A stretch of 64,000 nucleotides of DNA from an uncultured Acidobacteriota bacterium (GCA_963720655.1 CAVRFZ010000025.1:24444-88443), one strand, 5' to 3'; counted from the stretch's first letter, positions 2,425-46,665 are shown. Notes: a model not told the origin generated them from the letters alone. A program made the numbers and translations.

Positions 2425-3426
2425 TCACGACCTGCAATCCAGCACTGCCGCGCCGTTGATGCGATCCGCCTTCAAATCATTCAAGGCACGATTGGCTTCG
2501 CGCAGCGGAAAGAGAGTAACCTCGCTGCGGATCGGAATTTCGGCCGCGACTCGTAGGAAATCCTTGCCATCGTTGCGTGTGTTGTTTGCGACGCTTCGTA
2601 TCACGCGCTCCTCGTAGAGCAAACCGTAGTCGAATTCCGGAATCGGGCTCATGTGAATTCCGCCGAGGACCAGCACTCCGGCTTTCTTCAGCGCCTTCAG
2701 CGCCGGCGGAACTAATTCACCGGCCGGCGCAAACATGATGGCCGCGTCGATTTTGTCCGGAGGTGCGTCGGCGGCTTCGCCTACCCACACGGCGCCCAGT
2801 TTGCGAGCCAGCTCCTGATGCTTTTTGCCGCGTGTGGCCGCGTAAACTTCCGCGCCCCAATGCCGCGCCACCTGAATTGCCACGTGCCCCGCGGCGCCAA
2901 AGCCGTACAACGCAAGGCGTCCGCCTTTTTTGATTCCCGAAATCCGTAGGCAGCGGAAACCGATGATTCCGGCACAGAGAAGAGGAGCGGCCTGTTCATC
3001 GTCAAAGCTTTCCGGAATCTCGTATACAAAATCCTCCAGCGCCACGGCGTACTCCGCGTAGCCTCCATCCACGGTGTAGCCGGTAAACTCCGGATGGTCG
3101 CAGAGATTTTCCATTCCTGCGCGGCAGTATTCGCAGCTCTGATCCGTGCTATGAAGCCACGCAATTCCCACGCGCGCCCCCACGCGAAATCGCCGAGCCC
3201 CCTCTCCGCATTTCTCGACTGTGCCAACGACCTGGTGCCCGGGGATCACAGGAGATTTTCGCGGCGGCAATTCGCCTTCAACCACGTGCAAGTCAGTGCG
3301 GCAGACTCCACAAAAATGCACGCGGACCAGTATTTCACCCTTTCCGGGATGCGGAACGGGAACGTCGGCAAATTCCAGCGGATTCGTTTCAATCCGTGCT
3401 GCGGCCCGCAGAACGCACGCTTTCAT
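2425..3426 (-). CDS. zinc-dependent alcohol dehydrogenase (MDR family)
   Basis: CGVCRTDLH catalytic-zinc motif, [12 protein letters not shown] structural-zinc motif, GFGAAGH Rossmann motif. I placed the start at MKACVL (3426) rather than at the ORF-track start 3468. Confidence 0.85.
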
Positions 3427-4318
3427 TTTTCGATCCTTCTTTTCCCAGCCCCGCGTCTTCGGACACATTCAGCGCGATGGCGGACCAATCGAGATCGCCA
3501 CGGCCTTTGGCGACCGCTGAAACCCAGCGGTCATGCATCAGGCTGCCGAGCGGCAGGGGCGTGGTGCTGGCGGCGGCCATCTGCAAAATCAGATTGACGT
3601 CCTTCAACCCCAGCGTGAGCCGGAAGCCGGCGGGTTCAAAGCGCTGTTCGGCTATCTGGTTGGCGTAACCGGCGTGCAGAGGGGAAAATTTGCCGATCAT
3701 CTCCGCGACGGCTTTCTTGCTCACGCCGCTCTTTTCCGCGAGAGTCAACATTTCCGCGAGCGTCTCGATGGTTGCGGCCACCATGAAATTTCCGCACAAC
3801 TTGACCACGTTGGCGGCGCCGGGATCCTCGCCGAAATCGAATAGGCCCTGGCCGATGGCGTTTTGAATCGGCTCGGCGCGCTGCTTGGCGGCGGCCGCAC
3901 CGGACGTGCAAACCCACAGGCGCTTTGCCGCCGCCGCATCGGGGCGGCCGAACACCGGCGAGGCCACATAGGCCACTTGATGTTTGGCATGATGCTCGGC
4001 CAAGCGACGGGAGGTTACGGGCGAGATAGTGCTGAGCGAGACGTGAATTCCGCCGGGGCCCAGCCGTTCGACGAATGAGCCGCTCGCCAAGCACAAATCC
4101 TCCAAGGCACGGTCGTCCGCTACCATCGTCACGACGATCCCGCCGGACTGCGCTGCGTCCGCTGGTTTCGACGCAAGTGTGGCGCCTTTTTCGACGAGCG
4201 CAGCAGCTTTTGCAGCCGTTCGGTTGTACACCCGCAGGCCATAACCGGCCTTGAGCAGATTCGCAGCAATCGGTGCTCCCATGTTTCCCAACCCTATAAA
4301 TCCGAGTGTCTCTGGCAT
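3389..4318 (-). CDS. NAD(P)-dependent oxidoreductase, 3-hydroxyisobutyrate/6-phosphogluconate dehydrogenase family
   Basis: N-terminal [13 protein letters not shown] dinucleotide fold, 309 aa, HIBADH-like length. Its 3' end overlaps the ADH start by about 38 nt. Confidence 0.85.
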
Positions 4319-8162: not shown

Positions 8163-8452
8163 CGGTCAGTCGTTGTTGAACAAACTACCAGCGGCTTTCA
8201 AGGTTCCACAACTTCGCGTGCGGGCTCTCTCGCGGGAGAGCCTCCTGAGTCGAACATGAAATCCTATCGAGCGTCCTCCCCGTCCGTCGATACAGTGAAA
8301 GGCTTACTTTTTGCTGCCACATTGCTGGTGAAGGCCCGGCAACACGGGCAGCAGCAAAAAAAACTGAAGAGTGTATTGCGAAGCGGCACGGGAGCAAAGT
8401 ACTCTGGAACCTAGCGAATCGCCTTTTGTTAATAGGAAATCGGAGGAAATCG

Positions 8453-8704
8453 GTGGCTAAGACATTCGAAGTGGAAATCAAGTTTGAGGATCGCGAGAAG
8501 GGGCCGGGAACCGTGGCGGGGAAAGCCATCGTTACGGCCGGCACCATGGCGGCGGCAATCGGAAAAGGCGTGCGCGAGATTCTCGATAAGACGGATCGAA
8601 AGCAGAATTTCGACATGCAGAAACACGGTGTCGAAATTTTGGTGCGGTCTTCTGCGGACGCGGGCGAGTCTGACGAAGCAGCCGAGTCAGCGGCCGGCGC
8701 ATAA
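8453..8704 (+). CDS. hypothetical small protein (83 aa)
   Basis: A GTG start lies 6 nt after GGAGGA. I recognised no family. The C-terminal tail is acidic. Confidence 0.4.
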   Translation: MAKTFEVEIKFEDREKGPGTVAGKAIVTAGTMAAAIGKGVREILDKTDRKQNFDMQKHGVEILVRSSADAGESDEAAESAAGA

Positions 8705-8883: not shown

Positions 8884-10371
8884 GTGGGCGCGTCGCACCT
8901 AGAATCGCGGCCTAAATCGCACAGGCCAGGCTCTGATTCGAGAATTAGTGCGATTCTCGCGGAGCCGCTAATAGCGGAGACAGCCATCACACCCGGTCCG
9001 GGTAGGCCCAAAATAGCGATTGTGGACGACGATGCCGGGTTGCGCGCAAAGATTGCGTCTGCTCTGCGTTCAGATTTTGAAGTTCTCGAAGGCGAGGACT
9101 ACGACGCAGCGGTAAAGTTGCTGGAAGAGCGAGAGTTGGATGTGTTGCTGTTGGGGTTGCCCATCGCGTCCGGCGGCGTGCGGGAGTGCACTGAGTTGTT
9201 GTCAAGGCTGGACGGAAGCAACATCGACACGCTCGTGATCGTGCTGAGTTCCGATGAAAAGAAATCCACCGCGCTGAAGGTCATCGACGCGGGCTCTTAC
9301 GACTACTTCATCAAGCCAATCGACACGGACGTGCTCCGGCACCTGCTCGAGCGCGCAGTCGAGAAGCTGCACATCCAGCGCGAGAACCGGCTGCTGCGCG
9401 AGGAAATCAGCCGGAAGAACGCGCTCGGCGATCTGATCGGGACAACGGACTCGATGCGGCATGTGTTCGACTCAATCAAGCGGATGGCCCGGGCGACGAC
9501 CAACGTGATAATTCGCGGAGAGAGCGGCGTCGGAAAAGAGCTGGTGGCCCGCGCCCTCCACGAGCAGAGCCCGCGGCGAAACCGCGCTTTCATCAGCGTA
9601 AATTGCGCGGCGCTGCCCGAGGGGCTAATGGAGGCTGAGCTTTTTGGGTACGAGAAGGGGGCCTTTACAGGAGCAGTGGGAACGAAAGAAGGCCGCGTGG
9701 AGCTGGCCCATCAGGGAACACTGTTCCTCGATGAGATTGCAACGTTGACGCCACCATTACAGAGCAAGCTACTGCGGGTGCTGGAGGACCGGTCGCTGAC
9801 GAGGTTGGGCGGAAAGAAGCAGATCAAGGTGGATTTCCGGCTAATCAGCGCGACGAACGAGGACCTGGAAGAGATGGTGCGGGACGACCGGTTCCGCGAG
9901 GACCTGTATTACAGGATCCATGTGGTGCCGATTTTCGTGCCCGCGTTGCGCGAACGGGTAGAGGATATCCCTGTGCTGGCGGAGTATTTCGTCAGCGTCT
10001 ATTGCGCGGCCAATAGCTTTCCGGCGAAGCGTATCGCCGACGACGCCATGCAAGCGTTAAAACGCTACCCGTGGCCGGGCAACGTGCGCGAACTGGAGAA
10101 TGCGATTCAGAGGCTGGTGATCATGACGGACGGAGAAACGATTGAGCTCAAGGATCTGCCGATCGACATCATGCAGGTAGTCAGCCGGGACAGGGGACGG
10201 GTTAGGCTGTCGGGAAACGGGATCAATCTGGACAGAGAGATCGAGGCCTTCGAGCGACGGTGGGTGCAGGAAGCATTGGAACAATCGAAACAGGTAAAGT
10301 CAGAGGCGGCACGACTGCTGGGTGTCGATCGGAACCGATTGAACTACCTGTGCCGTAAGTACAGCCTGTGA
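8884..10371 (+). CDS. sigma-54-dependent transcriptional activator (receiver-like domain + AAA+ + Fis-type HTH)
   Basis: Walker A GESGVGKE, sigma-54 contact loop GAFTGA, C-terminal HTH AARLLGVDRNRLNYLCRKY. The receiver-like N-terminus has DVLLLGLP where the phospho-Asp is expected. The start codon is uncertain. Confidence 0.9.
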   Translation: MGASHLESRPKSHRPGSDSRISAILAEPLIAETAITPGPGRPKIAIVDDDAGLRAKIASALRSDFEVLEGEDYDAAVKLLEERELDVLLLGLPIASGGVRECTELLSRLDGSNIDTLVIVLSSDEKKSTALKVIDAGSYDYFIKPIDTDVLRHLLERAVEKLHIQRENRLLREEISRKNALGDLIGTTDSMRHVFDSIKRMARATTNVIIRGESGVGKELVARALHEQSPRRNRAFISVNCAALPEGLMEAELFGYEKGAFTGAVGTKEGRVELAHQGTLFLDEIATLTPPLQSKLLRVLEDRSLTRLGGKKQIKVDFRLISATNEDLEEMVRDDRFREDLYYRIHVVPIFVPALRERVEDIPVLAEYFVSVYCAANSFPAKRIADDAMQALKRYPWPGNVRELENAIQRLVIMTDGETIELKDLPIDIMQVVSRDRGRVRLSGNGINLDREIEAFERRWVQEALEQSKQVKSEAARLLGVDRNRLNYLCRKYSL

Positions 10372-10430
10372 TCCGGGTCTGCTTGCACAGGAGACTGGTA
10401 TCCGTATTTGCACATGGTGAAAAATTCATT

Positions 10431-10450
10431 GGCGTTGAGTAAATCAACAC
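10431..10450 (+). promoter_or_regulatory. candidate enhancer (UAS) inverted repeat GGCGTTGAG-N4-TCAACAC
   Basis: GTTGA-N5-TCAAC palindrome about 100 nt upstream of the -24/-12 promoter at 10543. A related GCGTTGAA/TTCAAC set lies upstream of the second sigma-54 promoter. Confidence 0.35.
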
Positions 10451-10542
10451 GGTAAAGACATTGGGGCAGAAGCAATCCGGGACGCAGAATTCGATCAAAC
10501 ACATTCCACGAGACTTATCGGGCGACTCGAGTCTCGAGGTGA

Positions 10543-10558
10543 TTGGCAACTTGATTGC
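10543..10558 (+). promoter_or_regulatory. sigma-54 (-24/-12) promoter
   Basis: TGGCAACTTGATTGCA matches TGGCAC-N5-TTGCA, with GG and GC exactly 12 nt apart. It lies 52 nt upstream of the peptide-1 ATG. Confidence 0.7.
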
Positions 10559-10609
10559 AAGATAGAAAGCATCGCCCCAGAGGGGCAACTTGAGAGGGAG
10601 AACAAAGAC

Positions 10610-10678
10610 ATGGCAAAGAAAACCTTGAAGAAGTCCAAGAAGCTCGAATCGACCAAGCCGTTGATCAGCCGCGGATAA
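10610..10678 (+). CDS. small Lys-rich peptide 1 (22 aa, MAKKTLKKSKKLESTKPLISRG)
   Basis: A GAGGGAG Shine-Dalgarno sits 9 nt upstream, a sigma-54 promoter lies upstream, and two hairpin terminators follow. It shares the KKLE..K.LI.R motif with two paralogs. The ORF is below the ORF-track size cutoff. Confidence 0.6.
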   Translation: MAKKTLKKSKKLESTKPLISRG

Positions 10679-10738
10679 TTTTTAGGTGCGCCCGAAATAG
10701 TGGCGCACTTTGCGGAGAAGGATTCTTGAAATGAGAAG

Positions 10739-10764
10739 AGGCCGCTCCTAGGAGCGGCCTTTTC
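10739..10764 (+). terminator. rho-independent terminator after peptide 1
   Basis: AGGCCGCTCC-TA-GGAGCGGCCT stem followed by TTTCC. It is preceded by a second hairpin, GTGCGCC-N9-GGCGCAC-TTT, at 10686-10711. Confidence 0.7.
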
Positions 10765-11003
10765 CACGTTAGGGCCAGAAAGTTAAAGGCCAAAGTCAGG
10801 GCAGAAAAATTCTGAAGATCGGCTTCTTGACCGTACCCTGGGCCGATTGGCTCAAGAGTCCGCAGGATCAGACCTGTAAGTGCCAGTATTTTAGTCATTT
10901 AGGAAACGGCACCTCTATGGATTAAGTTGGTTGCGCGTGATTCCGCGGCAGATTAGACTTTCTATCGTAGATGGAGCTCAACTTTTCATAACACGGTGCA
11001 AAA

Positions 11004-11099
11004 ATGAAGTCCAAACCGAAGCCAAAAACCCTTAAGAAGTCGACCAAACTCGAACCCTTGAAATCCCTCATCGTCCGCGCTCCTTGGGCCTCAAAGTAG
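11004..11099 (+). CDS. small Lys-rich peptide 2 (31 aa, MKSKPKPKTLKKSTKLEPLKSLIVRAPWASK)
   Basis: It is a paralog of peptide 1 (TLKKS.KLE..K.LI.R) with synonymous codon differences. An in-frame TAA lies 12 nt upstream of the ATG. The SD is weak (GGTG) and no clear promoter was found. Confidence 0.5.
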   Translation: MKSKPKPKTLKKSTKLEPLKSLIVRAPWASK

Positions 11100-11122
11100 C
11101 GACGGTTCCGTCAACCAGCCAG

Positions 11123-11917
11123 CTATTTACCCCTCTTACGAGCCAAGTACATCGTTCGCAGACCTGTAGATACTCGTCGGTTGCTGGGGGGCGCGGCGAG
11201 ATCGCTAAAATCCAGAACACGAACTAGTTCCAGCCCAGCCTGCCTGAGGTGGCGGATTATATCGGCATGGGGCCACTCGATTTCTTCCAGCAGGTCATCG
11301 TGGCGCTCCCAAAGGTCCTTTCGACCACGAATGAACCAAGTTACTCGATTCCAGCCTTTACCCCTCTTGCGGTCGAATCCGCCGTGCTCGACTGCAAAGA
11401 AATTCGGTCCTTCACCATAATTGGTTATGGACCAGTGCTGTTCGTAAAGGAGCCGCTGGTGCAAATCGAAGTAGAAATAGCCCCCGGGACGAAGCGCGCG
11501 GGCAACGGCCCGGGCAACTTGAGCCAATTGGGAGCGGTTGGGCAGGTGATTTATCACGCCCCATTGCGAGCAAACCAGATCGACTGGCTCGGGAAGGCTG
11601 AAGGTGCGCATGTCCGCCCGCCAGACACGTACGCGGAGCCCCGTCGCGCGCACCTTCCCACGCGTGACGCGGCACATTTGTGGGGATAAATCGACGGCAT
11701 AGACTTTCAGGCCCCGTCGCGCGAAATCAATGGCAGCCGTGCCGCTTCCGCAGCCAAGCTCACACACGCTTTTGACTCCGGGAAGAATCGAACGGAGCAA
11801 TTTTTCCCGGTTGCGAACCCAAGACTTTTCATAGAGAGGCCAGATCTCGTCGTAAACGGGGCCTAGTTCGGCGTAGGTGTTCGGTTTTGGCGCGATCTTT
11901 GTGGATGGGCGGGGCAA
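11123..11917 (-). CDS. class I SAM-dependent methyltransferase
   Basis: Motif I VCELGCGSGTAAIDFA, then acidic D in VYAVDLSP, and motif-IV-like LVCSQWGVINHL. Confidence 0.85.
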   Translation of the reverse strand: MPRPSTKIAPKPNTYAELGPVYDEIWPLYEKSWVRNREKLLRSILPGVKSVCELGCGSGTAAIDFARRGLKVYAVDLSPQMCRVTRGKVRATGLRVRVWRADMRTFSLPEPVDLVCSQWGVINHLPNRSQLAQVARAVARALRPGGYFYFDLHQRLLYEQHWSITNYGEGPNFFAVEHGGFDRKRGKGWNRVTWFIRGRKDLWERHDDLLEEIEWPHADIIRHLRQAGLELVRVLDFSDLAAPPSNRRVSTGLRTMYLARKRGK

Positions 11918-11981
11918 CAGGGCTCCTAAACGAGCGCCCTTTATATCAGGGGAGCGTGATTTTGCCCACCGCTAAAGGGGC

Positions 11982-12028
11982 GGCGTTGAAACGTTGGATT
12001 TTTCAACAACATGAGCAAAATTCAACGC
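11982..12028 (+). promoter_or_regulatory. candidate enhancer (UAS) half-sites GGCGTTGAA / TTCAACAAC / TTCAACGC
   Basis: Inverted GCGTTGAA (11983) and TTCAACGC (12021), plus an internal TTCAAC (12003), lie 85-125 nt upstream of the sigma-54 promoter at 12110. Confidence 0.35.
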
Positions 12029-12109
12029 TTACTGAGCTCAAATCAGAGGGTAGGCGTGCGCCGCCGTGCCTAAGTGGTTTGATTTTAAGCCAGGAGAGGG
12101 AATTGTGTT

Positions 12110-12125
12110 TGGCGCGCGAATTGCA
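12110..12125 (+). promoter_or_regulatory. sigma-54 (-24/-12) promoter
   Basis: TGGCGCGCGAATTGCA has GG and GC exactly 12 nt apart. It lies 53 nt upstream of the peptide-3 ATG, the same geometry as at peptide 1. Confidence 0.7.
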
Positions 12126-12177
12126 CTTGCTCTGAACAAGCCCGGGCAGGGACGAGACCAAGAAAAAGGGACGAATC

Positions 12178-12288
12178 ATGAATCCAACCGCGAAGCCAGT
12201 AAAGAAAAACAAGAAAGTCGAGCCGGCAAAGAAGCTCGAGCGTAAAACACCGCTGATGTCCGTGCGCAGTCTCACGGTGAAGTGGTAG
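12178..12288 (+). CDS. small Lys-rich peptide 3 (36 aa, MNPTAKPVKKNKKVEPAKKLERKTPLMSVRSLTVKW)
   Basis: AAGGGA SD about 8 nt upstream, sigma-54 promoter upstream, two hairpins downstream, and the shared KKLE..K(T)PL motif. Confidence 0.6.
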   Translation: MNPTAKPVKKNKKVEPAKKLERKTPLMSVRSLTVKW

Positions 12289-12372
12289 GGGATTAAGTCG
12301 TCCCGAGATTTTAACGATCTTCCGACCTTGCGCTCCGCTAGGTCGGGAGTTTGAAGTAGCAGCAACCCCGAA

Positions 12373-12406
12373 GGGCCGCCGTCCCAGGAACGGCGGCCCT
12401 TTCTTT
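12373..12406 (+). terminator. rho-independent terminator after peptide 3
   Basis: GGGCCGCCG-loop-CGGCGGCCC stem followed by TTTCTTT. A further hairpin CCGACCT/AGGTCGG lies at about 12333-12357. Confidence 0.7.
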
Positions 12407-12429
12407 GTGACCGCGTCCAATCCCCACAA

Positions 12430-14577
12430 TCACCACCAAACCTGAGAACGCAACCAGTGCCAAGCGCTTCGACTCATCTGCCAGGCCAACGGCCTGCTCT
12501 TCGCTGTAATCTTGGCGACACCGGTCATCCCGGCGCTGAGTGAGCCGTCGGAGTTCGGAAATACCATCACGACGGCGAAGCGGTTAGTCAGTTCCTGCCC
12601 TAGTCGCGTTAGCTTTTGCGTGTCAGAGATGGGCGCATCGGTAGCGGCGGCGGGAAGAATCTGCTCCACATGGCCTGTGTAGGTGCGAAAAGCGTAGGGC
12701 AGAACTTTCACTCTTACAGGAGCACCGGCACGAATGTCGTTCAGATCGCGATCAGAGACGAAAATGCGCGCTTTCATCGTGCGAGCGTCAGAGAGGCGGC
12801 AGAATTCTTCGCCAGCGGCGAGAAACTGGCCGACTCGCTGGCGAATTTCGGAAGTTGTCACGATGCCGTCAAAGGGGGCGCGAATTTGTAGCGCGTCGAG
12901 ATTGGATGTGGCGACGGCGAGTTCTTTCTGAAGACGGATGCGTTCGCGCACGGACTGGGCAGACTTCCCGGATGCAGGCTGGTCCTGATTCTCTCGAAGG
13001 TTGCTGCTAGCCAAGGTGAGTTCGATGGTGGTCTTTCTGGCCTCCGCTTCAATCTCCGGGTTCTGCAGAACGGCGAGGAGTTGACCCGCCTTAACCTCTT
13101 GACCCTGGCGAACGAATACCTCTGAGATTGTTCCGGCAACTGAGGTGCGGAGATGCGCGGCCTTACCGGGCTCGAGGAGGAGTTCGGAGGAGACGCTGGT
13201 GGGGATAGGAGGCACGAATAAGAGCAAAGCGACTCCTAAGACGCCGAAAGTCTGAGCGCGCGTTAATCTCCAGGTCATGTAGGACCCCCCCTGTTTTCGA
13301 ATCCATGCGCGGGCGACAGGCACGGATGATTTGATCCCCTTTCGCGCGAAAAAATAAAGCACACCGGCAAACAAGAAATAGCCCCAGTCTCCGAACTTTG
13401 AGACGAGCACATTCTTCGCGAACAACAGGACCACGGCCAGCAGGGCGGCACTGTAGATGATTGCTGTGACGCCGAAAATGAAGAAGATTCGCCGGTGGCG
13501 GCGGCTGGAAGGAGGAAGATCAATATCCCGGCGAAAAATGTATTTCTGCGCCCAAACGCGCAGGAAAGCGAATGCGTCTTCGCGCAAGTTGTCGATATCG
13601 AGGAACTGCGAGAGGGCGTAATAACCATCGGCTTTGATGAGCGGATTCAGGTTTAAAACAGCGCCCTGTATGCCGCTGAGAAGCATCATCTTGTACGCCA
13701 AGTCACTAACGATAGTGCCGGGTGCGGTGAAGTGCCAGATCACGGCTGAAGTGCTGCAAAGAAGAAGCTCCACCCAGATGCCGGCGAAGATCACCCATTG
13801 GCGGCGTGAAGTGCGATCAAAGAGAAGGATATCTGTGGTGTCGGTATAAAAGGCGGGCGTCAGGTAGATCAGCAAAAACCCCATTTGGTGAACGTCGCCG
13901 CCGAAGTGCTTGCAGGTAAGCCCGTGGCCGAACTCGTGGACTGCGCCGAGCAGCAGAAGCAGGATCCAAAACGCCCACACATCGTAGGCGCTCTTTTCGG
14001 CGAAGGAATAAAGCGATGAAGTGTCGCGCTGCACCCGGCTCCAGTCGCCAGCTACAAAATAGGCCGCCGTGACAAACAGGAGGATGCAAAAAAACACGAA
14101 CTGAGTAGTGTAAATCCAGCTGAGATAAGGATCGAGCTTCGCGAGGGTTTTATTTGGGTCCCAGGCCTTGAAGCTGATGTATAGCATGCTGGACTGGTCG
14201 ACGCGGCCTTTGCGTTCGTCGCGGATGCGTTCAAGAACCGCGAGATTTTTTTCGCCCAGGGACCGTTCCCACATGGCGGGCTCAATTGAATCGAGAAATT
14301 CGAGAACTTCGGATTCCGCGATCGCAGAATCGGGGTCTTGTTCGGCGAGCGCCTCGGATATCTCGGCCGGTGTACGTGTTCCGTCGCACAGCAAAAGCAG
14401 CTGATATTCGAATTCACCGTAACGGTTGTAGGAATTGGTTTCGTAATTCTTGATGACGTAACTCTTTTCGCCATTCACGGTCTGTTCGCTGATGCGCAGA
14501 TCGGAGCGAAGCTTGGGGCGCCGCAATCCTTTGGAGAGGACGCTCGAGACCTGAATACTGGTGGGGCCAAAGCGCAT
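12430..14577 (-). CDS. triple-fusion protein: PqqD-like RRE domain + M50 site-2-protease membrane domain + HlyD-type periplasmic adaptor domain
   Basis: The N-terminus SYVIKNYETNSYNRYGEFEYQLLLLCDGTRTPAEISEALAE...VLEFLDSI is PqqD-like. HEFGHGLTCK (HExxH) and LNLNPLIKADGYY (NxxPxxxxDG) are M50 motifs within a multi-TM block. The C-terminus has a lipoyl-like hairpin (VAGTISEVFVRQGQEVKAGQLLAVL ... IRAPFDGIV). Confidence 0.8.
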   Translation of the reverse strand: MRFGPTSIQVSSVLSKGLRRPKLRSDLRISEQTVNGEKSYVIKNYETNSYNRYGEFEYQLLLLCDGTRTPAEISEALAEQDPDSAIAESEVLEFLDSIEPAMWERSLGEKNLAVLERIRDERKGRVDQSSMLYISFKAWDPNKTLAKLDPYLSWIYTTQFVFFCILLFVTAAYFVAGDWSRVQRDTSSLYSFAEKSAYDVWAFWILLLLLGAVHEFGHGLTCKHFGGDVHQMGFLLIYLTPAFYTDTTDILLFDRTSRRQWVIFAGIWVELLLCSTSAVIWHFTAPGTIVSDLAYKMMLLSGIQGAVLNLNPLIKADGYYALSQFLDIDNLREDAFAFLRVWAQKYIFRRDIDLPPSSRRHRRIFFIFGVTAIIYSAALLAVVLLFAKNVLVSKFGDWGYFLFAGVLYFFARKGIKSSVPVARAWIRKQGGSYMTWRLTRAQTFGVLGVALLLFVPPIPTSVSSELLLEPGKAAHLRTSVAGTISEVFVRQGQEVKAGQLLAVLQNPEIEAEARKTTIELTLASSNLRENQDQPASGKSAQSVRERIRLQKELAVATSNLDALQIRAPFDGIVTTSEIRQRVGQFLAAGEEFCRLSDARTMKARIFVSDRDLNDIRAGAPVRVKVLPYAFRTYTGHVEQILPAAATDAPISDTQKLTRLGQELTNRFAVVMVFPNSDGSLSAGMTGVAKITAKSRPLAWQMSRSAWHWLRSQVWW

Positions 14578-15546: not shown

Positions 15547-17976
15547 TTACGGAAGCCAGCTCCAGACCTTCTGCCAAATCCAGCGAAATGGATCACGAAA
15601 TAGTGCGTAGCCTATCGGGTACCATCCGGTATGGAACCATTCGAGCGGGCCGCCTGCGGCGCGGATGCGAACGCGGCCAACCATTCCGTCGCGAGCGCGC
15701 CCGCCGGAATTCGAAAAGAGAGCGCGTACTAGAAAGTATTGGTCCCCAGCATCGGAATGAGTTTGAGCGCCGATACGATCGACGGTCCCGAAGAATGTTG
15801 CCGTCGGGAAGGCATTGAGCTTAAGGGCGACTTCCTTGCCAGGATGGACGAGGGCCAAATCCGTTTCAGGCACGCTCATTTCGGCGGCCATCCGTTCCTG
15901 GTCGACGATCTCGGCGAACGGATCTCCTGCCTTGACCATCACGCCAGTTTTCTCTTCAATTTTCGGCGTCACAACCACACCAGCAATCGGCGCACGAAGA
16001 TCCGCAGAGGCGACGCGCTGCTGTTCGAGTTTCACTTCGGCAGCATGAAGGTCGGCGCGCATTTTGGCTTGTCCTGCGGCCGATGGATCGTTACGAAATT
16101 CCGCTTCCGCAATTTCACGGCGAGCCTGCGCGAGAGCGGCTTCGGCTTGGGCAAGCTTGATGCGATCTTCGCTGTCGTCAAGCTGGGCAAGAGATTGGCC
16201 CGGCTGCACAGTTTCGCCTTCGCGAACGAAAACGTGCCGCACGACTCCGCCTTCGATCGAGCTAACAATGCGGCGCTCAGCGGGGACCACGGTAGCATCC
16301 GTACGCACGCGCACAGGCCATGGCACCAGAATAAGAATGGCGGCAACAATGGCGGCGCGCTCAGCATATAGGCGCCAGCGCTCCTTCGGCATCGCGGCAG
16401 CCAGGCGCTTTTTCTGTTCGGCAAGCGGCTGGAAAATATTCGCGAGCGGAACCTGCTGATAAAGCTGCGCATTGCGGATTGCAACAGTCGTCTGGTTGGC
16501 GAGAATCGAGACAGTCTCTTTGTTGGCGTCGGTGAGGAAGTCTGCGTCGCTGCTAAGAAGTATCATCGCGCCAAGAACGCCCTGATCGTCGCGCAGCGGC
16601 AAGGCATACGTGCCGTTGAGCTCGTAGGCTTCGAGGTATGAAACGAGCTGCGCGCGAGCATCTTCCGGATCGGCGTGCCAGCCATCGTCGTATTTATCGA
16701 CGGCGACGGGGCCTTCCTGCTGGGATACCCATTCCAGCCGGTCGCGCAGTTCGCTCATCTCGCGCGTTTTTGGAACCTCCGCTTCGCCCGAGACGGCGCC
16801 AAGAACGAATTTACGCCGATCGAAAAAGCCGATGACTAATTTGTCGAACGGAACTACGGAGGCGGCTTGCTGGGCGACAGTGGAAAGAACGTGATCGAGG
16901 TCCAGCGTGGATGTGATTTCCTGCGAAATTTTTAGAAGAGCGTCAAGGGCGTAGACCTTACGTTCGGATTCAAGAAGATTCGCATTGTGCAAGGCGACAG
17001 CAGCCTGCTCGCTGATGCTTTCGAGGAAAAAAAGATCTTCTTCGTTAAAGGGAGTGCCGTCTGCTTTGTTCACCAGCTCGACGATGCCGAGAACCTCGTT
17101 TTCCTTTCGTAGCGGCGCCGCCATCCACGACTCGATCTCGAATTCTCCGCCAGCCTTGATGCGCTCTTCGAGACCCGGTTCTTCCGATGGCGTTTCAAGG
17201 AGCTTCGGATTTCCCGCCTGGGCAATTTCACCGAGCAGCCCTTCGCTCGCGGAAACACTCGCACCTTGCTCCACCGTCGGATCCACTCCTGCGGTATTGG
17301 CCAGACGAAGTTCGTCTCCCGCCGCGAGCCACAGATTGCAGCCCTCAGCTCCGAGAATGTCTTTGATTTTGCCGGCGACGATGGGCAGCAGCTCTTCTAA
17401 CTCGAGTGTGGATGTGAAGGTGCGGCCAAGGTCGTAGAGAGCAGTGAGGCGTTCGAGAGTTGCGAGCTGGGCGTGGCGCTCGCCTTCTATAGCTTCGAGA
17501 TTCGTGAGAGCCTGGCCTGCAAGCCGCGCCGCTTCTTCGAGAAAATGCGCGTCTTGCTCTGTAAAGTTCCCGGCTCTCTTGTTCAGGACCTCGACCACGC
17601 CTTCGGGCCCTTCGACGCCGGGAAGGGAGGCAAACATTGCAGATTTGACGCGGACCCGGCTCGTCTCCTCCAGATGCTCGAGATCATCAAGCGACAGATC
17701 CTGCGCGCTAAGGCGGCTGGTGCTTGCCGACTCAAACACGATGGCGAGAGGACCTTCAGTGACCGGTTCGCTGGAGGGCACAATCCGCTCGCCGGTTTCG
17801 GTCCAGCGCGTACGGCATGCAAGCCCTTCCGATTCAGAATCGTGAATCCACACGAATACGGCGCGCGCTCCGAGCGTGGTGCCCACGCGAGCGGCAAACG
17901 TCTTCAAAAGCGTGTCCTGATCGCGACACGCTAGAGACACGCTCGCGAGTTCGAAGAGCGCCGAAGATGTTTCCAT
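15547..17976 (-). CDS. GAF-domain (about 3 copies) - TM - HlyD-type adaptor fusion protein
   Basis: The start is set at METSSALFEL with a GGGAGA SD. About 520 cytoplasmic residues carry repeated GAF-like units. A single TM (AAIVAAILILVPWPV) follows, then HlyD motifs (IEGGVVRHVFVREGETVQPGQSLAQLD ... LRAPIAGVVV). Confidence 0.8.
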   Translation of the reverse strand: METSSALFELASVSLACRDQDTLLKTFAARVGTTLGARAVFVWIHDSESEGLACRTRWTETGERIVPSSEPVTEGPLAIVFESASTSRLSAQDLSLDDLEHLEETSRVRVKSAMFASLPGVEGPEGVVEVLNKRAGNFTEQDAHFLEEAARLAGQALTNLEAIEGERHAQLATLERLTALYDLGRTFTSTLELEELLPIVAGKIKDILGAEGCNLWLAAGDELRLANTAGVDPTVEQGASVSASEGLLGEIAQAGNPKLLETPSEEPGLEERIKAGGEFEIESWMAAPLRKENEVLGIVELVNKADGTPFNEEDLFFLESISEQAAVALHNANLLESERKVYALDALLKISQEITSTLDLDHVLSTVAQQAASVVPFDKLVIGFFDRRKFVLGAVSGEAEVPKTREMSELRDRLEWVSQQEGPVAVDKYDDGWHADPEDARAQLVSYLEAYELNGTYALPLRDDQGVLGAMILLSSDADFLTDANKETVSILANQTTVAIRNAQLYQQVPLANIFQPLAEQKKRLAAAMPKERWRLYAERAAIVAAILILVPWPVRVRTDATVVPAERRIVSSIEGGVVRHVFVREGETVQPGQSLAQLDDSEDRIKLAQAEAALAQARREIAEAEFRNDPSAAGQAKMRADLHAAEVKLEQQRVASADLRAPIAGVVVTPKIEEKTGVMVKAGDPFAEIVDQERMAAEMSVPETDLALVHPGKEVALKLNAFPTATFFGTVDRIGAQTHSDAGDQYFLVRALFSNSGGRARDGMVGRVRIRAAGGPLEWFHTGWYPIGYALFRDPFRWIWQKVWSWLP

Positions 17977-18183
17977 TGCTCTCCCTGGAGGGGCGTTCTC
18001 ACACCCGCCCCCGCGCCGAGCCCGGAGACCGGGGGAAAGAGAACGCGCGGAGCCTAACAAAAGGGGCTGTAGCGCGTCAAGGAACTGTCCCCTAATGGCC
18101 CCGATAAACAGGACATACGAGAGTGCAAACCCTTGATTGCGGAGCGCAATTCAGTTAGCTTTGCAACTCGCTGTGAGGTACCT

Positions 18184-18519
18184 GTGAATATTGGTATTCG
18201 CAAAGCCGGACAAGCCACGATCCTGGATCTTGAGGGCCCCCTCAAACTTGGTGAGGCGGAAGAGGCATTCCGCAGTCAGATTCAGCAACTGATGGATGCG
18301 GGATCCACTCGCGTTGCCGTGAACCTGGCGGGTGTAACCGAGCTTGATAGCTCGGGAATTGGCGCTCTCGTCCGTTCTTTTACGATGTTGAAGCGGGCGG
18401 GCGGAAAATGCACGTTTTTCGCGCCGAGTAAGCGCGTGATGATGCTGCTGAAAATGGTGCGCCTGGATTCGATATTGGACCTTTCGGAAGACGAAGCCAC
18501 AGCGCTAACGCGCATTTAG
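18184..18519 (+). CDS. STAS-domain protein (anti-sigma-factor-antagonist type)
   Basis: GTG start after GAGG. ILDLEGPL...VAVNLAGVTELDSSGIGALV is the SpoIIAA/RsbV pattern with the conserved Ser. Confidence 0.8.
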   Translation: MNIGIRKAGQATILDLEGPLKLGEAEEAFRSQIQQLMDAGSTRVAVNLAGVTELDSSGIGALVRSFTMLKRAGGKCTFFAPSKRVMMLLKMVRLDSILDLSEDEATALTRI

Positions 18520-25050: not shown

Positions 25051-26862
25051 CTAATTAGCCAGGGGAATCGAAAAGGAGAATCGCGAGCCTTCGCCTACGG
25101 TGCTTTCCACCCACAGACGTCCGTCGTGCGCGTCGATGATGTGTTTGGCGATGGATAGGCCCAGGCCTGTGCCGCCTGCTTCCCGGGAACGGGCCGCGTC
25201 CACGCGATAGAAACGCTCGAAGATCCGCTCCTGGTCAATAAGTGGGATCCCGATTCCAGTATCCATAACCTCGATCACCATTTCGTTGGAATTGACGCGG
25301 GCGCTTACCCGGATCCGGCCGCCAGGTGGCGTGTACTGAATTGCGTTATCGACCAGATTCTGAAGAACGTCACGCAGCAAGCTGGCATCGCCGCGAACCG
25401 GTGGAAGTCCCGGCGGGATCTCTATGTCGAGGGTTATCTGTTTGCGGCTGGCTTTCATCAGAGCTGTTTCCGCACAGCGCTCGATAAACTCGATCACACC
25501 GACCGCCGAAAACTCCAGTTCGAGCTTCCCTGCTTCGATGCGTGCGAGCTTTAAGAGATCGTCCGTCAATCGCGCCAGCCGATTGGCGTGATCGCGCATG
25601 ATTTCAAGGAATCGCCGGTTGTTTTTTGGATCTTCGAGCGCTCCGCCCAACAGTGTTTCCGCAAAACCCTGGATCGCTGTGAGAGGAGTCTTGAATTCAT
25701 GAGAGACGTTGGCTACGAAATCTTGCCGGACGCGTTCGAGCCGCCGCAGCTCAGTGACATCGTGAAGCACAACCACCGCGCCTGATGGTTTTTGCGAAGG
25801 AAACGTTACGGGAGACGGCCGGTTCGCGTTGGACGCCGCGGCTGTGGGTTCGAGCGCCTTCACGGGAGCAGCCGTCACAGAGAAACTCTGCTGTGACACG
25901 ATACCGGTTACGATGTCGCTCTGAAGCCCTTCCTCTCCGCCCAGAGCCTTGCGGATCAGTCCGGTTAATTCCGAATTGCGAACCACCTCGATGAGCGGGC
26001 GCCCTTCGCTGCTTTTCGAATCTATGTTCAGAATTTCCGAAAACGCGCGATTGCAAAAGACGAGCCGCTCCTGCGCATCAATCACCGCCACACCTTCCAC
26101 CATGCTTCGGAGGATCGCGCTCGAACGATTGCGCTCGCCACTCAGCAGCCGGATCTCGGATTCGAGGCGCCGCGCCGTTTCGTTGAGCGATGCACCCAGC
26201 TCTGCGAGCTCATCGCTCGAGTTTTCACCGGGCAGCGGGCGGAAATCTCCTTCTGCGACGCGCTTTGAGAATTCCGTCAGGCGTTCCACGCGGGCCGAAA
26301 ACATCCGCGAAATCATAAGAGACGCGGCGAGTCCCATTAGAAATATCAGCAGAGAGGCGAACAGCAGCCGGTCACGCAGCTCGGTTAGCGCCACATCAAG
26401 GCTGGTTAATGGTTTCGCCGCGCGAATCACTACCGGAGCTCCGCCCGGAGGCTCGTAACGTATCGCTTGATAGACCGCCTGGCCCTCTAAGGCCGTGCTG
26501 AGCCGAAGGGATTGCCCTTGCCCGTTCGCGAACGCCTGCTGAACTTCCGGGCTGGTGGAGCGTTCTCCGAGTGTCTCGAGATCTTGTGCAGAGTCAGCAA
26601 GCACTTTGCCGCCGTTCTCGATCACGGTTACGCGGGCCCCCGATTGCGACATCCAGTCCACCCAAGAGCGAAGCTGGGAAATATCATTGATTGCGGGCGG
26701 ACGCGTGCGGGCGAGATTAAGAAGCGAAGTGAGTTCTTCGTTGGTTTTGCGAATGTATTCGCGGCGCAGTACTTCCGCAGAGTAGAAATCGACCGCCAGC
26801 AGAACTCCGACCAGGAGGGCTAGATACGTCAGCCCAATCTTCCAGAAAATCCTAGCTCGCAC
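25051..26862 (-). CDS. phoR: phosphate-regulon-type sensor histidine kinase (TM-HAMP-PAS-HisKA-HATPase)
   Basis: H-box VANVSHEFKTPLTAI, N-box LVDNAIQYT, G-boxes DTGIGI and GGTGLGLSI. Adjacent to and overlapping the OmpR-type regulator. The symbol is assigned from context. Confidence 0.8.
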   Translation of the reverse strand: MRARIFWKIGLTYLALLVGVLLAVDFYSAEVLRREYIRKTNEELTSLLNLARTRPPAINDISQLRSWVDWMSQSGARVTVIENGGKVLADSAQDLETLGERSTSPEVQQAFANGQGQSLRLSTALEGQAVYQAIRYEPPGGAPVVIRAAKPLTSLDVALTELRDRLLFASLLIFLMGLAASLMISRMFSARVERLTEFSKRVAEGDFRPLPGENSSDELAELGASLNETARRLESEIRLLSGERNRSSAILRSMVEGVAVIDAQERLVFCNRAFSEILNIDSKSSEGRPLIEVVRNSELTGLIRKALGGEEGLQSDIVTGIVSQQSFSVTAAPVKALEPTAAASNANRPSPVTFPSQKPSGAVVVLHDVTELRRLERVRQDFVANVSHEFKTPLTAIQGFAETLLGGALEDPKNNRRFLEIMRDHANRLARLTDDLLKLARIEAGKLELEFSAVGVIEFIERCAETALMKASRKQITLDIEIPPGLPPVRGDASLLRDVLQNLVDNAIQYTPPGGRIRVSARVNSNEMVIEVMDTGIGIPLIDQERIFERFYRVDAARSREAGGTGLGLSIAKHIIDAHDGRLWVESTVGEGSRFSFSIPLAN

Positions 26863-31159: not shown

Positions 31160-31795
31160 ATGGGACCCTCCTGCCAGCAAGCGAGCGCTGCCGTGCCGCG
31201 CGTCCCCGCGATGTGCATGAGGCTCGTGCTCGCTTTCATCATTCTGATTTCGCATTCGATCGCGGATTCGTCAGCCCTTATTGCTCAAACGAAGACGGCC
31301 ACTGAATATCAGGTGAAAGCCGCGTTCCTCTACAATTTCGCTAAATTTGTTGAGTGGCCGCCATCCGCTTTTAGCGATGCGAAGCAACCGCTCGACATTT
31401 GTGTCTACGGACGCGATCCGTTCGGAAGTGCTCTGGAAGATGCGCTGCTCGGAAAGACGATAGGTGAACGCCGCGTTGGCCTTGGACGGGCCACGCAATT
31501 CCAAGACCTTGCGGGTTGCCAGGTGGTTTTCCTGGGCGCCCCGGCGCGCGAATCCGCGGCGGAGTTGGCCAATCGGCTAAAAGGCCGCGCGGTTCTACTC
31601 GTTGGTGAAAGCGACGGCTTCGCAGCCTCCGGCGGCACGATCCAGTTCACGATCGAAGATAACCGCGTACATTTCGTCATCAATCCAGACGCGGCGGATC
31701 GAGCGGGCCTGAAGATCAGCTCAAAACTTCTGGCCCTGGCCAAAATCGTGCGCGATTCGAATCGGTCGGTTGCCGCCGGGAGCCCACTGCGATGA
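31160..31795 (+). CDS. YfiR-family (DUF4154) periplasmic protein
   Basis: YQVKAAFLYNFAKFVEWP and KISSKLLALAK are hallmark DUF4154 motifs. The start may be at 31208. Confidence 0.8.
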   Translation: MGPSCQQASAAVPRVPAMCMRLVLAFIILISHSIADSSALIAQTKTATEYQVKAAFLYNFAKFVEWPPSAFSDAKQPLDICVYGRDPFGSALEDALLGKTIGERRVGLGRATQFQDLAGCQVVFLGAPARESAAELANRLKGRAVLLVGESDGFAASGGTIQFTIEDNRVHFVINPDAADRAGLKISSKLLALAKIVRDSNRSVAAGSPLR

Positions 31796-34700: not shown

Positions 34701-34979
34701 ATCCGAATTTTTGCGGATCAATTCCCGAAAACACTGTACGAAATTCAGAATGCCATTCGCGCCGCCGACCTTCCTGCTCTCGAGCGAGCCGCCCATTCCC
34801 TGAAAGGCTCAGCGTCCAACCTTTTCGCGACCGGCGTGACTCAGGCTGCCGCAAAACTGGAAGAATCCGCGCGCTCCGGCGACTCTTCACGCTCTCGCGA
34901 ACAGTTTCAGGCGCTTGAAAGCGAAGTGGAAAAACTTCTGCGCGAACTCGAAGCTCTCTCGCGAAAGGTGGCCAGTTGA
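31792..34979 (+). pseudogene. hybrid sensor kinase (CHASE8-like sensor, HAMP, PAS, HisKA, HATPase, REC, REC, HPt) with an apparent -1 frame break inside the first REC
   Basis: ORF 31792-33963 ends in ILVVDDNETNRIIL...LVRSGNRAPPSP. The REC domain continues in ORF 33825-34979 as FSAVISDLQMPDMDGFEL. The break lies near the CCCC run at 33900-33905 and may be a sequencing error. Confidence 0.8.
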
Positions 34980-46207: not shown

Positions 46208-46652
46208 AGCCGTCGAAATCTTGTTGGTCGAAGACAATCCTGCTGACGCCGAGCTGACGATTCACGCTCTCCGGAAAAGCAAGCTGGTCAATCACATTTG
46301 CCTTCTGCAGGACGGCGCCGAGGCTCTTGATTTTCTCTTCTGCCGGGGCGCCTACTCCATGCGGAGATTCGACACTCCTCCCCGTCTGATCCTCCTCGAT
46401 TTGAAACTCCCCAAGGTCGACGGCATTGGAGTCCTCGAACAAATAAAAAGCGACACACGAACGAAAGCTATTCCGGTGATCCTTCTCACTTCCTCTAAGG
46501 AAGAGCGTGATGTGGCAAGAAGCTACAAGCTCGGCGTGAACAGTTACATCCAAAAACCGGTGAGTTTCACGGAGTTTCAAGACGTTGTGAGGCAGCTCGG
46601 CCTGTATTGGCTGATAGCCAATAGCAAGCCACCAGCTTCCGCATTCTCTTAG
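46194..46652 (+). CDS. single-domain response regulator (CheY/Rcp1-like)
   Basis: ILLVEDNPADAEL, LILLDLKLPKVDG, LTSS and IQKP are receiver motifs. It overlaps the kinase gene by 14 nt. Confidence 0.85.
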   Translation: MTVPEAVEILLVEDNPADAELTIHALRKSKLVNHICLLQDGAEALDFLFCRGAYSMRRFDTPPRLILLDLKLPKVDGIGVLEQIKSDTRTKAIPVILLTSSKEERDVARSYKLGVNSYIQKPVSFTEFQDVVRQLGLYWLIANSKPPASAFS

Positions 46653-46665
46653 GAGTCTCGACTCG

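Follow-up and report, generated by a model that had tools for sequence, protein, structure and literature searches.

A predicted RRE–M50 protease–HlyD fusion protein and its association with short leader-bearing peptide genes in an uncultured Acidobacteriota bacterium

We analyzed a stretch of 64,000 nucleotides from an uncultured Acidobacteriota bacterium (GCA_963720655.1 CAVRFZ010000025.1:24444-88443), hereafter called the window, around a gene for a single polypeptide that an earlier note had read as a PqqD-like RiPP recognition element (RRE; RiPP, a peptide made on ribosomes and modified after translation), an M50 site-2 protease (S2P) and a HlyD adaptor. The claimed open reading frame (ORF) of 715 aa is real. 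It begins with ATG and lies on the minus strand, which needs stating; the plus-strand frame across the same interval contains many stops. The strings quoted in the note were all found in the translation, where they can be read directly at residues 39-79 (SYVIKNYETNSYNRYGEFEYQLLLLCDGTRTPAEISEALAE), 91-98 (VLEFLDSI), 214-224 (HEFGHGLTCKH) and 308-320 (LNLNPLIKADGYY), and domain, fold and motif evidence agrees with the three-part reading. The gene belongs to a minus-strand operon with the order GAFx3-TM-HlyD, HlyD lipoprotein, fusion (TM, transmembrane). Three short ORFs that the note had named P1-P3 are all present on the plus strand, downstream of a sigma-54 activator gene that shares their strand (Table 1).

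Table 1. Features of the fusion locus, and peptide ORFs beside relatives of the fusion gene. Positions are those of the window or, where an L number is given, of that related locus; a slash marks the boundary between leader and tail.
Feature	Position	Strand	Basis
NtrC-type sigma-54 activator (receiver, AAA+, HTH_8)	8884..10371	+	Pfam Sigma54_activat; facing the fusion gene in about 50 loci
Sigma-54 -24/-12 element TGGCAACTTGATTGC, 66 nt 5' of the P1 ATG	10544..10558	+	sequence; pattern count
P1 precursor, 22 aa, MAKKTLKKSKKLESTKPL/ISRG; full MAKKTLKKSKKLESTKPLISRG	10610..10678	+	ORF; L001 orthologue; family alignment
GC-rich hairpin 3' of P1, could terminate the transcript	10739..10760	.	scan scored the minus strand; the plus strand too reads stem, loop, stem, short T run
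P2 precursor, 31 aa, MKSKPKPKTLKKSTKLEPLKSL/IVRAPWASK; full MKSKPKPKTLKKSTKLEPLKSLIVRAPWASK	11004..11099	+	ORF; L001 orthologue
S-adenosylmethionine (SAM) methyltransferase, between P2 and P3, downstream of the fusion gene	11123..11917	-	Pfam Methyltransf_25
Sigma-54 -24/-12 element TGGCGCGCGAATTGC, 68 nt 5' of the P3 ATG	12110..12124	+	sequence; pattern count
P3 precursor, 36 aa, MNPTAKPVKKNKKVEPAKKLERKTPL/MSVRSLTVKW; full MNPTAKPVKKNKKVEPAKKLERKTPLMSVRSLTVKW; convergent with the fusion gene	12178..12288	+	ORF; L004 orthologue
Terminator hairpin where the P3 and fusion genes converge	12378..12397	+	sequence and scan
RRE-M50-HlyD fusion gene, 715 aa plus stop	12430..14577	-	ORF list and translation; Pfam/NCBIfam matches; full-length homologues
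Periplasmic HlyD/EmrA-type adaptor, residues ~463-715	12433..13191	-	Pfam; TIGR01730; Foldseek; PDB sequence matches
Polytopic M50/S2P core and last anchor helix, residues ~158-462, seven predicted TM segments	13192..14106	-	hydropathy; loop charges; AlphaFold2 helices; NF041824; NF058609
Second S2P motif N309-L-N-P-L-I-K-A-D317-G318, third metal ligand Asp	13624..13653	-	direct reading; homologue alignment
HExxH zinc-binding/catalytic motif H214 E215 F G H218	13924..13938	-	direct reading; invariant in 37 diverse homologues
PqqD-like RRE domain, residues ~21-100	14278..14517	-	AlphaFold2 secondary structure; Foldseek; weak PqqD profiles; NF041824 coverage
Second adaptor, HlyD/RND_mfp lipoprotein, 312 aa	14590..15528	-	Pfam; TIGR01730 (153 bits, cut-off 94.9); residues 17-20 form the lipobox LAGC; synteny in about 60 loci
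Third adaptor, three cytoplasmic GAF domains, one TM segment, periplasmic HlyD; 837-aa ORF	15547..18060	-	Pfam GAF x3, HlyD_D23, HlyD_3; synteny
STAS-domain protein, divergent from the operon	18133..18519	+	Pfam STAS; adjoins the module in most acidobacterial loci
Repeat precursor, L023	10199-10504	-	
Repeat precursor, L031	10178-10510	-	
Repeat precursor, L070	17398-17712	+	
Repeat precursor, L043	10331-10630	-	
EELE-type peptide ORFs, L049	7305-7943		
EELE-type peptide ORFs, L074	1121-1273		
EELE-type peptide ORFs, L079	7296-7938		
EELE-type peptide ORFs, L065	7591-7728		
EELE-type peptide ORFs, L067	7691-7897		
EELE-type peptide ORFs, L039	6357-6530		

The full protein (49-sequence alignment, mean pLDDT 72.7) and, separately, residues 1-150 were modeled with AlphaFold2. 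In each case the prediction shows an N-domain of three strands (residues 28-34, 37-44 and 49-54) followed by three helices (55-63, 70-80 and 88-97), with pLDDT values of 80-89. When the isolated domain was compared with the PDB using Foldseek, the top five matches were leader-bound lasso RREs of TbiB1 (5v1v/5v1u; probability 0.97-1.0, target TM-score 0.55-0.63), followed by lasso B1 6jx3 and the sactisynthase CteB 5why; a fold of 80 residues yields E-values that are, as one would expect, modest (about 0.02). Sequence profiles gave weak matches to the same family: the Pfam PqqD model (PF05402) aligns at residues 59-97 with 18.1 bits against a cut-off of 23.4 (E = 3.4e-3), the NCBIfam PqqD model TIGR03859 reaches 19.1 bits against a cut-off of 46 (E = 9e-4), and a profile search of the PDB ranks PqqD 5sxy first at an E-value of only 0.37. 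RREs are known to diverge strongly in sequence (PMC10028931). By its predicted RRE fold and its NF041824 homology to the daptide peptidase (see below), the N-domain is an RRE, though the PqqD sequence thresholds failed. The PqqD-like character that the note had assigned to residues ~30-100 thus holds at the level of the predicted three-strand/three-helix fold, for which RREs are the best matches in the PDB; profile and fold searches alike point to PqqD and RREs and to no unrelated fold.

The segment that follows is polytopic, and both S2P motifs expected within residues ~150-420 are intact and invariant, or nearly so, in the family. In an alignment of 37 homologues with 24-67% identity to the fusion, His214, Glu215, His218, Pro312, Asp317, Gly318 and Tyr319 are invariant, and Asn309 and Asn311 are conserved in at least 90%. 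Because its catalytic residues do not vary across these proteins, the protease appears to be under selection as an active S2P. The Pfam model Peptidase_M50 (PF02163), which is annotated on most close homologues of the fusion, aligns at residues 202-338 with 25.9 bits against a cut-off of 27.2. Helices predicted by AlphaFold2 at residues 158-177, 197-224, 265-283, 289-310, 359-395, 398-432 and 441-453 combine with the hydropathy profile into seven TM segments, the final one at about 441-462. The HExxH motif is placed at the cytoplasmic end of helix 197-224 and the Asp motif where helix 289-310 ends, and the K/R-rich loops 320-366 (11 K+R) and 413-442 (9 K+R, 1 D+E) share a side with the N-terminus. 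From the seven spans and the positive-inside loops, a position at the cytoplasmic face is predicted for the RRE, the HExxH motif and the Asp motif, and a periplasmic one for the adaptor; in this prediction RRE and protease active site are on compatible sides of the membrane.

The C-terminal 250 aa, earlier described as a membrane-fusion protein, match the adaptor fold at an E-value of about 1e-14. In the AlphaFold2 model this part consists of a lipoyl domain, a short alpha-hairpin (helices 507-530 and 538-561), a beta-barrel and a W-rich C-terminal helix. Three Pfam models score above their cut-offs within residues 472-646 (HlyD_3, 65.8 bits; HlyD_D23, 62.6; Biotin_lipoyl_2, 37.6), phmmer finds MacA, MexJ, EmrA and related chains in the PDB, and Foldseek matches the full model to MacA, MexA, AcrA, ZneB and EmrA with E-values of 1e-14 to 1e-11. 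TIGR01730 aligned solely over positions 21-249 of its 322, and the membrane-proximal domain is therefore lacking, as it is in EmrA/HlyD-type adaptors. The fusion also has the order of parts of these adaptors, in which lipoyl, alpha-hairpin and beta-barrel domains come after an N-terminal TM anchor; it differs from them in that its hairpin is much shorter, a polytopic protease supplies the anchor with its last helix, and no cognate transporter was identified. A Trp/Arg-rich C-terminal helix (R...R...W; residues 697-715, window 12433-12489) is kept family-wide. Two further adaptors are encoded in the operon. The gene for the HlyD lipoprotein lies 12 nt 5' of the fusion gene; the start of the GAFx3-HlyD gene (TTG) is uncertain, its relatives having about 806-808 aa. 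The three adaptor domains are paralogues with 25-26% identity.

Over residues 23-417, that is, RRE and protease together, the best NCBIfam match of the fusion is the daptide peptidase model daptide_HExxH (NF041824; E = 3.9e-54), at 184.2 bits against an equivalog cut-off of 300. MpaP of the daptide pathway is an RRE-dependent intramembrane peptidase that removes the daptide leader, and daptides need, besides a C-terminal Thr, MpaB (DUF-RRE), an oxidative decarboxylase and an aminotransferase (PMC10028931). MpaP resembles the fusion in carrying an N-terminal RRE on an M50/S2P core and in its proposed role of removing leaders from small co-encoded precursors. With a SAM methyltransferase gene directly downstream of the fusion gene, the locus might thus be taken for a daptide-type RiPP cluster, in which an MpaP orthologue frees the peptide and the methyltransferase dimethylates the modified C-terminus. 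This proposal is effectively refuted. The match falls below the equivalog cut-off; MpaP clusters with MpaB/C/D/M, which convert the C-terminal Thr, whereas an MpaB-like DUF-RRE protein, an Fe-alcohol dehydrogenase and an aminotransferase are all missing among the neighbors scanned; P1-P3 end in G, K and W, not in Thr; and a HlyD domain, which MpaP lacks, is not described for daptide peptidases (PMC10028931). The methyltransferase itself is found in just L001 and L002, two relatives with 79% identity, among the 83 related loci that were compared for synteny, and it was rejected as a component of the system owing to its absence beyond these closest relatives; it might have been inserted recently or serve as a tailoring enzyme of this lineage. 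By profile score and locus content, the fusion is a homologue of the daptide peptidase and not a member of its family.

The earlier note knew of no functional characterization of this architecture. For the HlyD-fused form this stands, inasmuch as a full-text search of the open-access literature and bioRxiv found no paper on an M50-HlyD fusion, an absence that is not proof; the RRE-S2P half, however, is partly characterized as MpaP. The preprint on TMcin was set aside as unrelated, its HExxH family being DUF3267, a different one. Nor is the fusion a one-off, as database searches show. A word-indexed search returned 1,216 homologues at E ≤ 1e-5, and the best 120 of these are mostly about 715 aa long, 65-98% identical and aligned over about 100% of the query, with a few truncated proteins among them; those entries of the 120 that name an organism come from Candidatus Acidiferrales (Acidobacteriota). 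An exhaustive search of 50%-identity representatives gave 19,321 matches at E ≤ 1e-3 and 2,819 at E ≤ 1e-30, and most of the best 150 of the 19,321, with lengths of 680-820 aa, are aligned over residues ~20 to ~714. The first 20 residues of the fusion (MRFGPTSIQVSSVLSKGLRR, window 14518-14577) are near-invariant in the Acidiferrales clade and absent from distant homologues. A scan of one genome per species, with a 10-sequence alignment as query, confirmed at least 596 stretches as relatives. Full-length matches among the best 80 loci come from Acidobacteriota, Planctomycetota, Gemmatimonadota, Verrucomicrobiota, Chlamydiales, Bacteroidales, Ignavibacteria and Nitrospirae, and further from Beta- and Gammaproteobacteria, Binatia, Eisenbacteria and Kuenenia. 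Because full-length matches span so many phyla, the RRE-M50-HlyD architecture, as judged from these alignments, is old and widespread, and it is annotated automatically by its parts only: the Joint Genome Institute (JGI) name is 'putative peptide zinc metalloprotease protein' (yydH-derived), and the National Center for Biotechnology Information (NCBI) names are 'efflux RND transporter periplasmic adaptor subunit' and 'HlyD family efflux transporter'.

Comparison of the 83 loci revealed a conserved module in the order GAF-HlyD, HlyD, fusion, a gap of 450-3000 bp and, on the other strand, the gene of a sigma-54 activator; a STAS gene is close by. Throughout the Acidobacteriota this arrangement recurs, even where identity of the fusion falls to 27-35%, and one Eisenbacteria and one Binatia genome have it too; GAF-HlyD and HlyD neighbors were seen in loci of Chlamydiales, Gemmatimonadota and Alteromonadaceae as well. 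PADLOC returned nothing for the fusion or the adaptors, and its matches to the activator and the methyltransferase were dismissed as merely generic AAA+ and methyltransferase domains. The STAS protein is anti-sigma antagonist-like and is encoded beside the GAF-HlyD gene or beside the activator, which hints at a partner-switching input. Sensor kinases are abundant in the window (25051-26862, 31792-37135 and 44249-48699; CHASE8, MASE1, a double-receiver/Hpt protein, a hybrid kinase and, at 44249-46207, a kinase whose ETR1_N domain resembles ethylene receptors), each of which is a candidate for the kinase that the orphan activator lacks. Directly 5' of the activator lies a 92-aa ORF (8426-8704, plus strand) with no Pfam match. 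Just 3' of the activator, L003 (12943-13071, minus strand) and L016 (12626-12754, minus strand) have a conserved 42-aa ORF (…SGRSFIRPEERPD…) that is unlike the precursor peptides and for which no counterpart was noticed in the window.

In the window, the gap between the fusion and activator genes holds P1-P3, which have a conserved Lys-rich leader and a hypervariable tail, 4-16 aa. Such gaps of the Acidiferrales type contain one to five ORFs of 22-53 aa, each with a sequence like a ribosome-binding site (RBS) before the ATG and a leader of the form M-x(1-5)-K-x-[LVI]-K-K-x-K-K-[LIV]-x3-K-[PKS]-L, after which the sequences diverge completely. In the family alignment the first ~22 columns are conserved and the tails (for example ISRG, IQLGYHKK, IKLLHS, MTTKFAGR and TIVGVGRG) are hypervariable, so that ORFs of this type, as aligned, show the classic pattern of leader and core. 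P1 differs from its L001 orthologue by two synonymous and two non-synonymous changes, P2 from its L001 orthologue by ten synonymous and five non-synonymous codon changes, and P3 from its L004 orthologue by nine and five, respectively. The P2 ORF is 82% identical between the two loci, compared with 59-62% for its flanks, and orthologous peptide ORFs in general show 82-94% DNA identity against 57-79% in most flanks. Because the frame is kept, synonymous changes are in excess, the ORFs are better conserved than their flanks, and RBS-like sequences and promoters precede them, the peptide genes are in all likelihood real, translated and under selection.

Most of these genes have promoters of the sigma-54 type. 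We searched upstream of 61 acidobacterial-type peptide genes for the pattern TGG-N8-TTGC with at most one mismatch, and found an element before 46 of them, mostly 61-77 nt from the ATG, where the background expectation is 0.02 per 20-nt window. The elements before P1 and P3 have the canonical -24/-12 spacing. No sigma-70-like promoter was found over 10300-12500, and Rfam gave nothing in that interval beyond terminator-like hairpins. From its position between two convergent genes, the hairpin between P3 and the fusion gene could serve both.

Peptide genes also accompany distant relatives of the fusion, and the type of leader tracks the protease clade (Lys-rich in Acidiferrales, QKKSLIS in Terriglobales, the EELE type elsewhere). 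At least 30 loci of the Terriglobales type have, in the same gap, an ORF of 45-123 aa in which the leader M[AST][IV]QKKSLIS precedes tandem repeats, 7-16 copies of a unit of 3-7 residues with one K or R, the gene being preceded by a sigma-54 element (L019-L070). Examples are (LAKGT)x12, (LATKN)x12, (LSKQVG)x8 or more, (PGNALK)x9, (RPAV)x16, (GRA)x12, (AKV)x10 and (GGKNL)x7. In L023 all 12 LAKGT units, and in L031 all 12 LATKN units, have distinct DNA sequences: 12 versions at each locus, which differ only synonymously. Since identical units carry this many synonymous versions, the repeat unit, read at the codon level, owes its constancy to selection on the peptide, not to slippage. A pentapeptide-repeat beta-helix, a weak NCBIfam hint for the five-residue repeats, is unlikely to apply in general because orthologues have units of 3, 4, 6 or 7 residues.

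These observations also bear on whether the small ORFs are translated at all. At 22-36 codons they are very short, and neither Pfam nor NCBIfam has a family for any of the three peptide types, so one could suppose that the sigma-54 transcripts act as regulatory RNAs and that the RRE binds another ligand. We regard this as highly improbable, given that synonymous changes outnumber non-synonymous ones between orthologues, repeat units stay identical in amino acids while their DNA varies synonymously, RBS-like motifs precede the ATG, and the only structures found in the region are terminator-like hairpins, with no Rfam family matching.

A third arrangement occurs in Gemmatimonadota, one Limnocylindrales, one Betaproteobacterium and one Chlamydiales, where one to three ORFs on the same strand flank the fusion gene. 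Their products have the leader (L/V)EELE(Q/E)RIAP and cores rich in G, S, N and P. At the Gemmatimonadales locus L079 the fusion gene is accompanied by three peptide genes, the first of them behind a perfect TGGCACGCGCGTTGCA sigma-54 promoter, and by no other adaptor or modifying enzyme. The ELE...P of this leader resembles the daptide leader motif E(-8)L(-7)D(-6)P(-5)M(-4)E(-3)xP(-1) (PMC10028931); this resemblance is a lead only. Across the family, the associated peptides can be read as unmodified, hypervariable or multi-copy, and sigma-54-controlled. Their co-occurrence with the fusion and the tracking of leader type with protease clade suggest that the RRE would bind the leader of the co-encoded peptides.

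The database names raise the question of whether the fusion is an ordinary adaptor of tripartite efflux or type I secretion with an accessory protease, serving an unlinked pump of the ATP-binding cassette (ABC), major facilitator superfamily (MFS) or resistance-nodulation-division (RND) type, with the small ORFs unrelated to it. In L019 (Granulicella sp. S190) an MFS_3 gene annotated as 'transmembrane secretion effector' (2641-3885, minus strand) does lie near the module, beside its STAS gene, and might encode a partner transporter in that lineage. This gene is not conserved, however, and the window has PAP2 and PhoU/Pst genes at the corresponding place. The RRE is a fold that binds peptide leaders, leader-bearing small ORFs accompany the fusion in three unrelated arrangements in several phyla, and the invariant catalytic residues indicate that the protease is no relic. 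An ordinary efflux adaptor is, in our judgment, quite improbable.

Several known systems share parts of the architecture. Double-glycine peptidase ABC exporters with HlyD and TolC partners (e.g., CvaB/CvaA/TolC for colicin V) couple leader cleavage to passage through an adaptor; what they have in common with the fusion system is a diderm envelope and small, leader-bearing, otherwise unmodified peptides with variable cores. The fusion differs in being an RRE-guided zinc S2P instead of a C39 cysteine peptidase, in having its adaptor fused, and in belonging to a module without an ABC ATPase. By Pfam and NCBIfam, C39 peptidase and ABC ATPase domains are both absent from the fusion and its operon partners, which are thus not a peptidase-containing ABC transporter. 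S2Ps of the Eep/RseP type free short C-terminal pheromones (enterococcal sex pheromones, streptococcal SHP) from small precursors with a Lys-rich N-terminus; their substrates, however, are hydrophobic and signal-peptide-like, export is by a separate ABC exporter, PptAB, and neither an RRE nor a HlyD domain is present. SpoIVFB is an S2P that removes the N-terminal pro-sequence of a non-transmembrane substrate on the cytoplasmic side with the aid of an extra cytoplasmic binding domain, but that domain is a CBS domain, the substrate is a sigma factor, and there is no periplasmic adaptor. M50 enzymes are also found among RiPP leader proteases (EpeP, TglG and TmoG), and EpeP is thought to cleave and export its peptide EpeX (PMC10885120). 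EpeP/YydH and LiaK resemble the fusion as membrane M50 proteases dedicated to a small ribosomal peptide, but the match to their NCBIfam model (NF058609; residues 143-332, E = 1e-13, 51 bits against a cut-off of 225) is limited to the protease core, and the fusion module lacks a radical-SAM epimerase. EpeP comes from the monoderm Bacillus. The fusion can thus be placed with a known kind, the RRE-dependent intramembrane leader peptidases, from which its fused adaptor, the two extra adaptor paralogues and the peptide association set it apart.

Taken together, we lean slightly toward reading the fusion as an inner-membrane, leader-peptide-dependent maturation protease that is joined to its own periplasmic export adaptor. 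The NtrC-type activator would switch on the sigma-54 promoters of P1 and P3, and the RRE would bind the conserved Lys-rich leader of the 22-36-aa peptides, which the M50 domain would cut at or just after the leader. The tail (ISRG, IVRAPWASK or MSVRSLTVKW here, each repeat unit in relatives) would then exit through a periplasmic assembly of the fused adaptor, the lipoprotein HlyD and GAFx3-HlyD, docked to an unlinked outer-membrane channel, and the GAF domains and the STAS protein would probably gate or regulate this machine. The products would be unmodified peptides that serve as signals or small bacteriocin-like effectors. The nearest analogy would be the double-glycine peptidase ABC exporter with its HlyD partner, here with another protease, a fused adaptor and no ATPase.

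A number of observations count against this interpretation. No ABC, RND, MFS or TolC-like/OEP genes were found in the conserved module or among the ~30 window ORFs scanned, and we do not rate the export reading higher because the missing motor and outer-membrane factor are its main weaknesses. With about 24 residues per helix and no membrane-proximal domain, the hairpin may neither contact nor open an outer-membrane factor. Unlike the classical substrates of S2Ps, P1-P3 are very hydrophilic; in the window, their genes lie on the strand opposite to the protease operon. Upstream of P2 (10860-11003), neither a sigma-54 nor a sigma-70 element was recognizable by pattern search and orthologue alignment; this region is poorly conserved among orthologues. 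The full AlphaFold2 model has a pTM of 0.38, so that its inter-domain geometry is unreliable. Past the assignment of domains, binding, cleavage and export are each deduced from context.

The chief rival explanation is a protease without export, in which the HlyD part acts as a sensor, filter or oligomerization scaffold (cf. the PDZ domains of RseP), the substrate is the neighboring peptides or some other protein or peptide of the cytoplasm or membrane, and the products act inside the cell or the membrane, e.g., as regulators of the sigma-54 activator. Besides the lack of a transporter, ATPase and outer-membrane factor in the conserved module and the short hairpin without a membrane-proximal domain, it gains from the classical role of S2Ps in signaling cascades and from the conservation of GAF, STAS and sigma-54 activator proteins alongside the fusion. 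Three paralogous adaptors per operon are hard to account for as sensors, however; hypervariable tails and multi-copy repeats typify secreted signals and toxins, not housekeeping regulators; and the adaptor fold matches, at E-values of about 1e-14, are to bona fide conduit-forming adaptors. On this evidence we think a protease without export unlikely.

More tentatively than for maturation and export as such, RRE-M50-HlyD proteins may represent an unrecognized, ATPase-less and leader-gated processing-and-secretion pathway of diderm bacteria, which would release short unmodified peptides as sigma-54-controlled cell-cell signals or narrow-spectrum effectors, with hypervariable single cores as products here and multi-copy units of 3-7 residues in Terriglobales. 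If this is true, one polypeptide would choose the substrate, remove its leader and pass it into a trans-envelope conduit with no ABC, RND or MFS motor involved, and secretion of this kind would be spread over thousands of protein clusters in Acidobacteriota, Planctomycetota, Gemmatimonadota, Verrucomicrobiota, Chlamydiota and Proteobacteria. The precursors, a class that includes selected tandem-repeat precursors, have been overlooked by genome mining because no modifying enzyme flags their loci. Databases that call the family efflux adaptors would need correction: it is large, unstudied and mis-annotated, and its candidate substrates are now concrete. The system would offer a way into peptide signaling and antagonism in soil Acidobacteria, a little-known field in which the cultured Granulicella sp. 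S190 carries a relative of the fusion.

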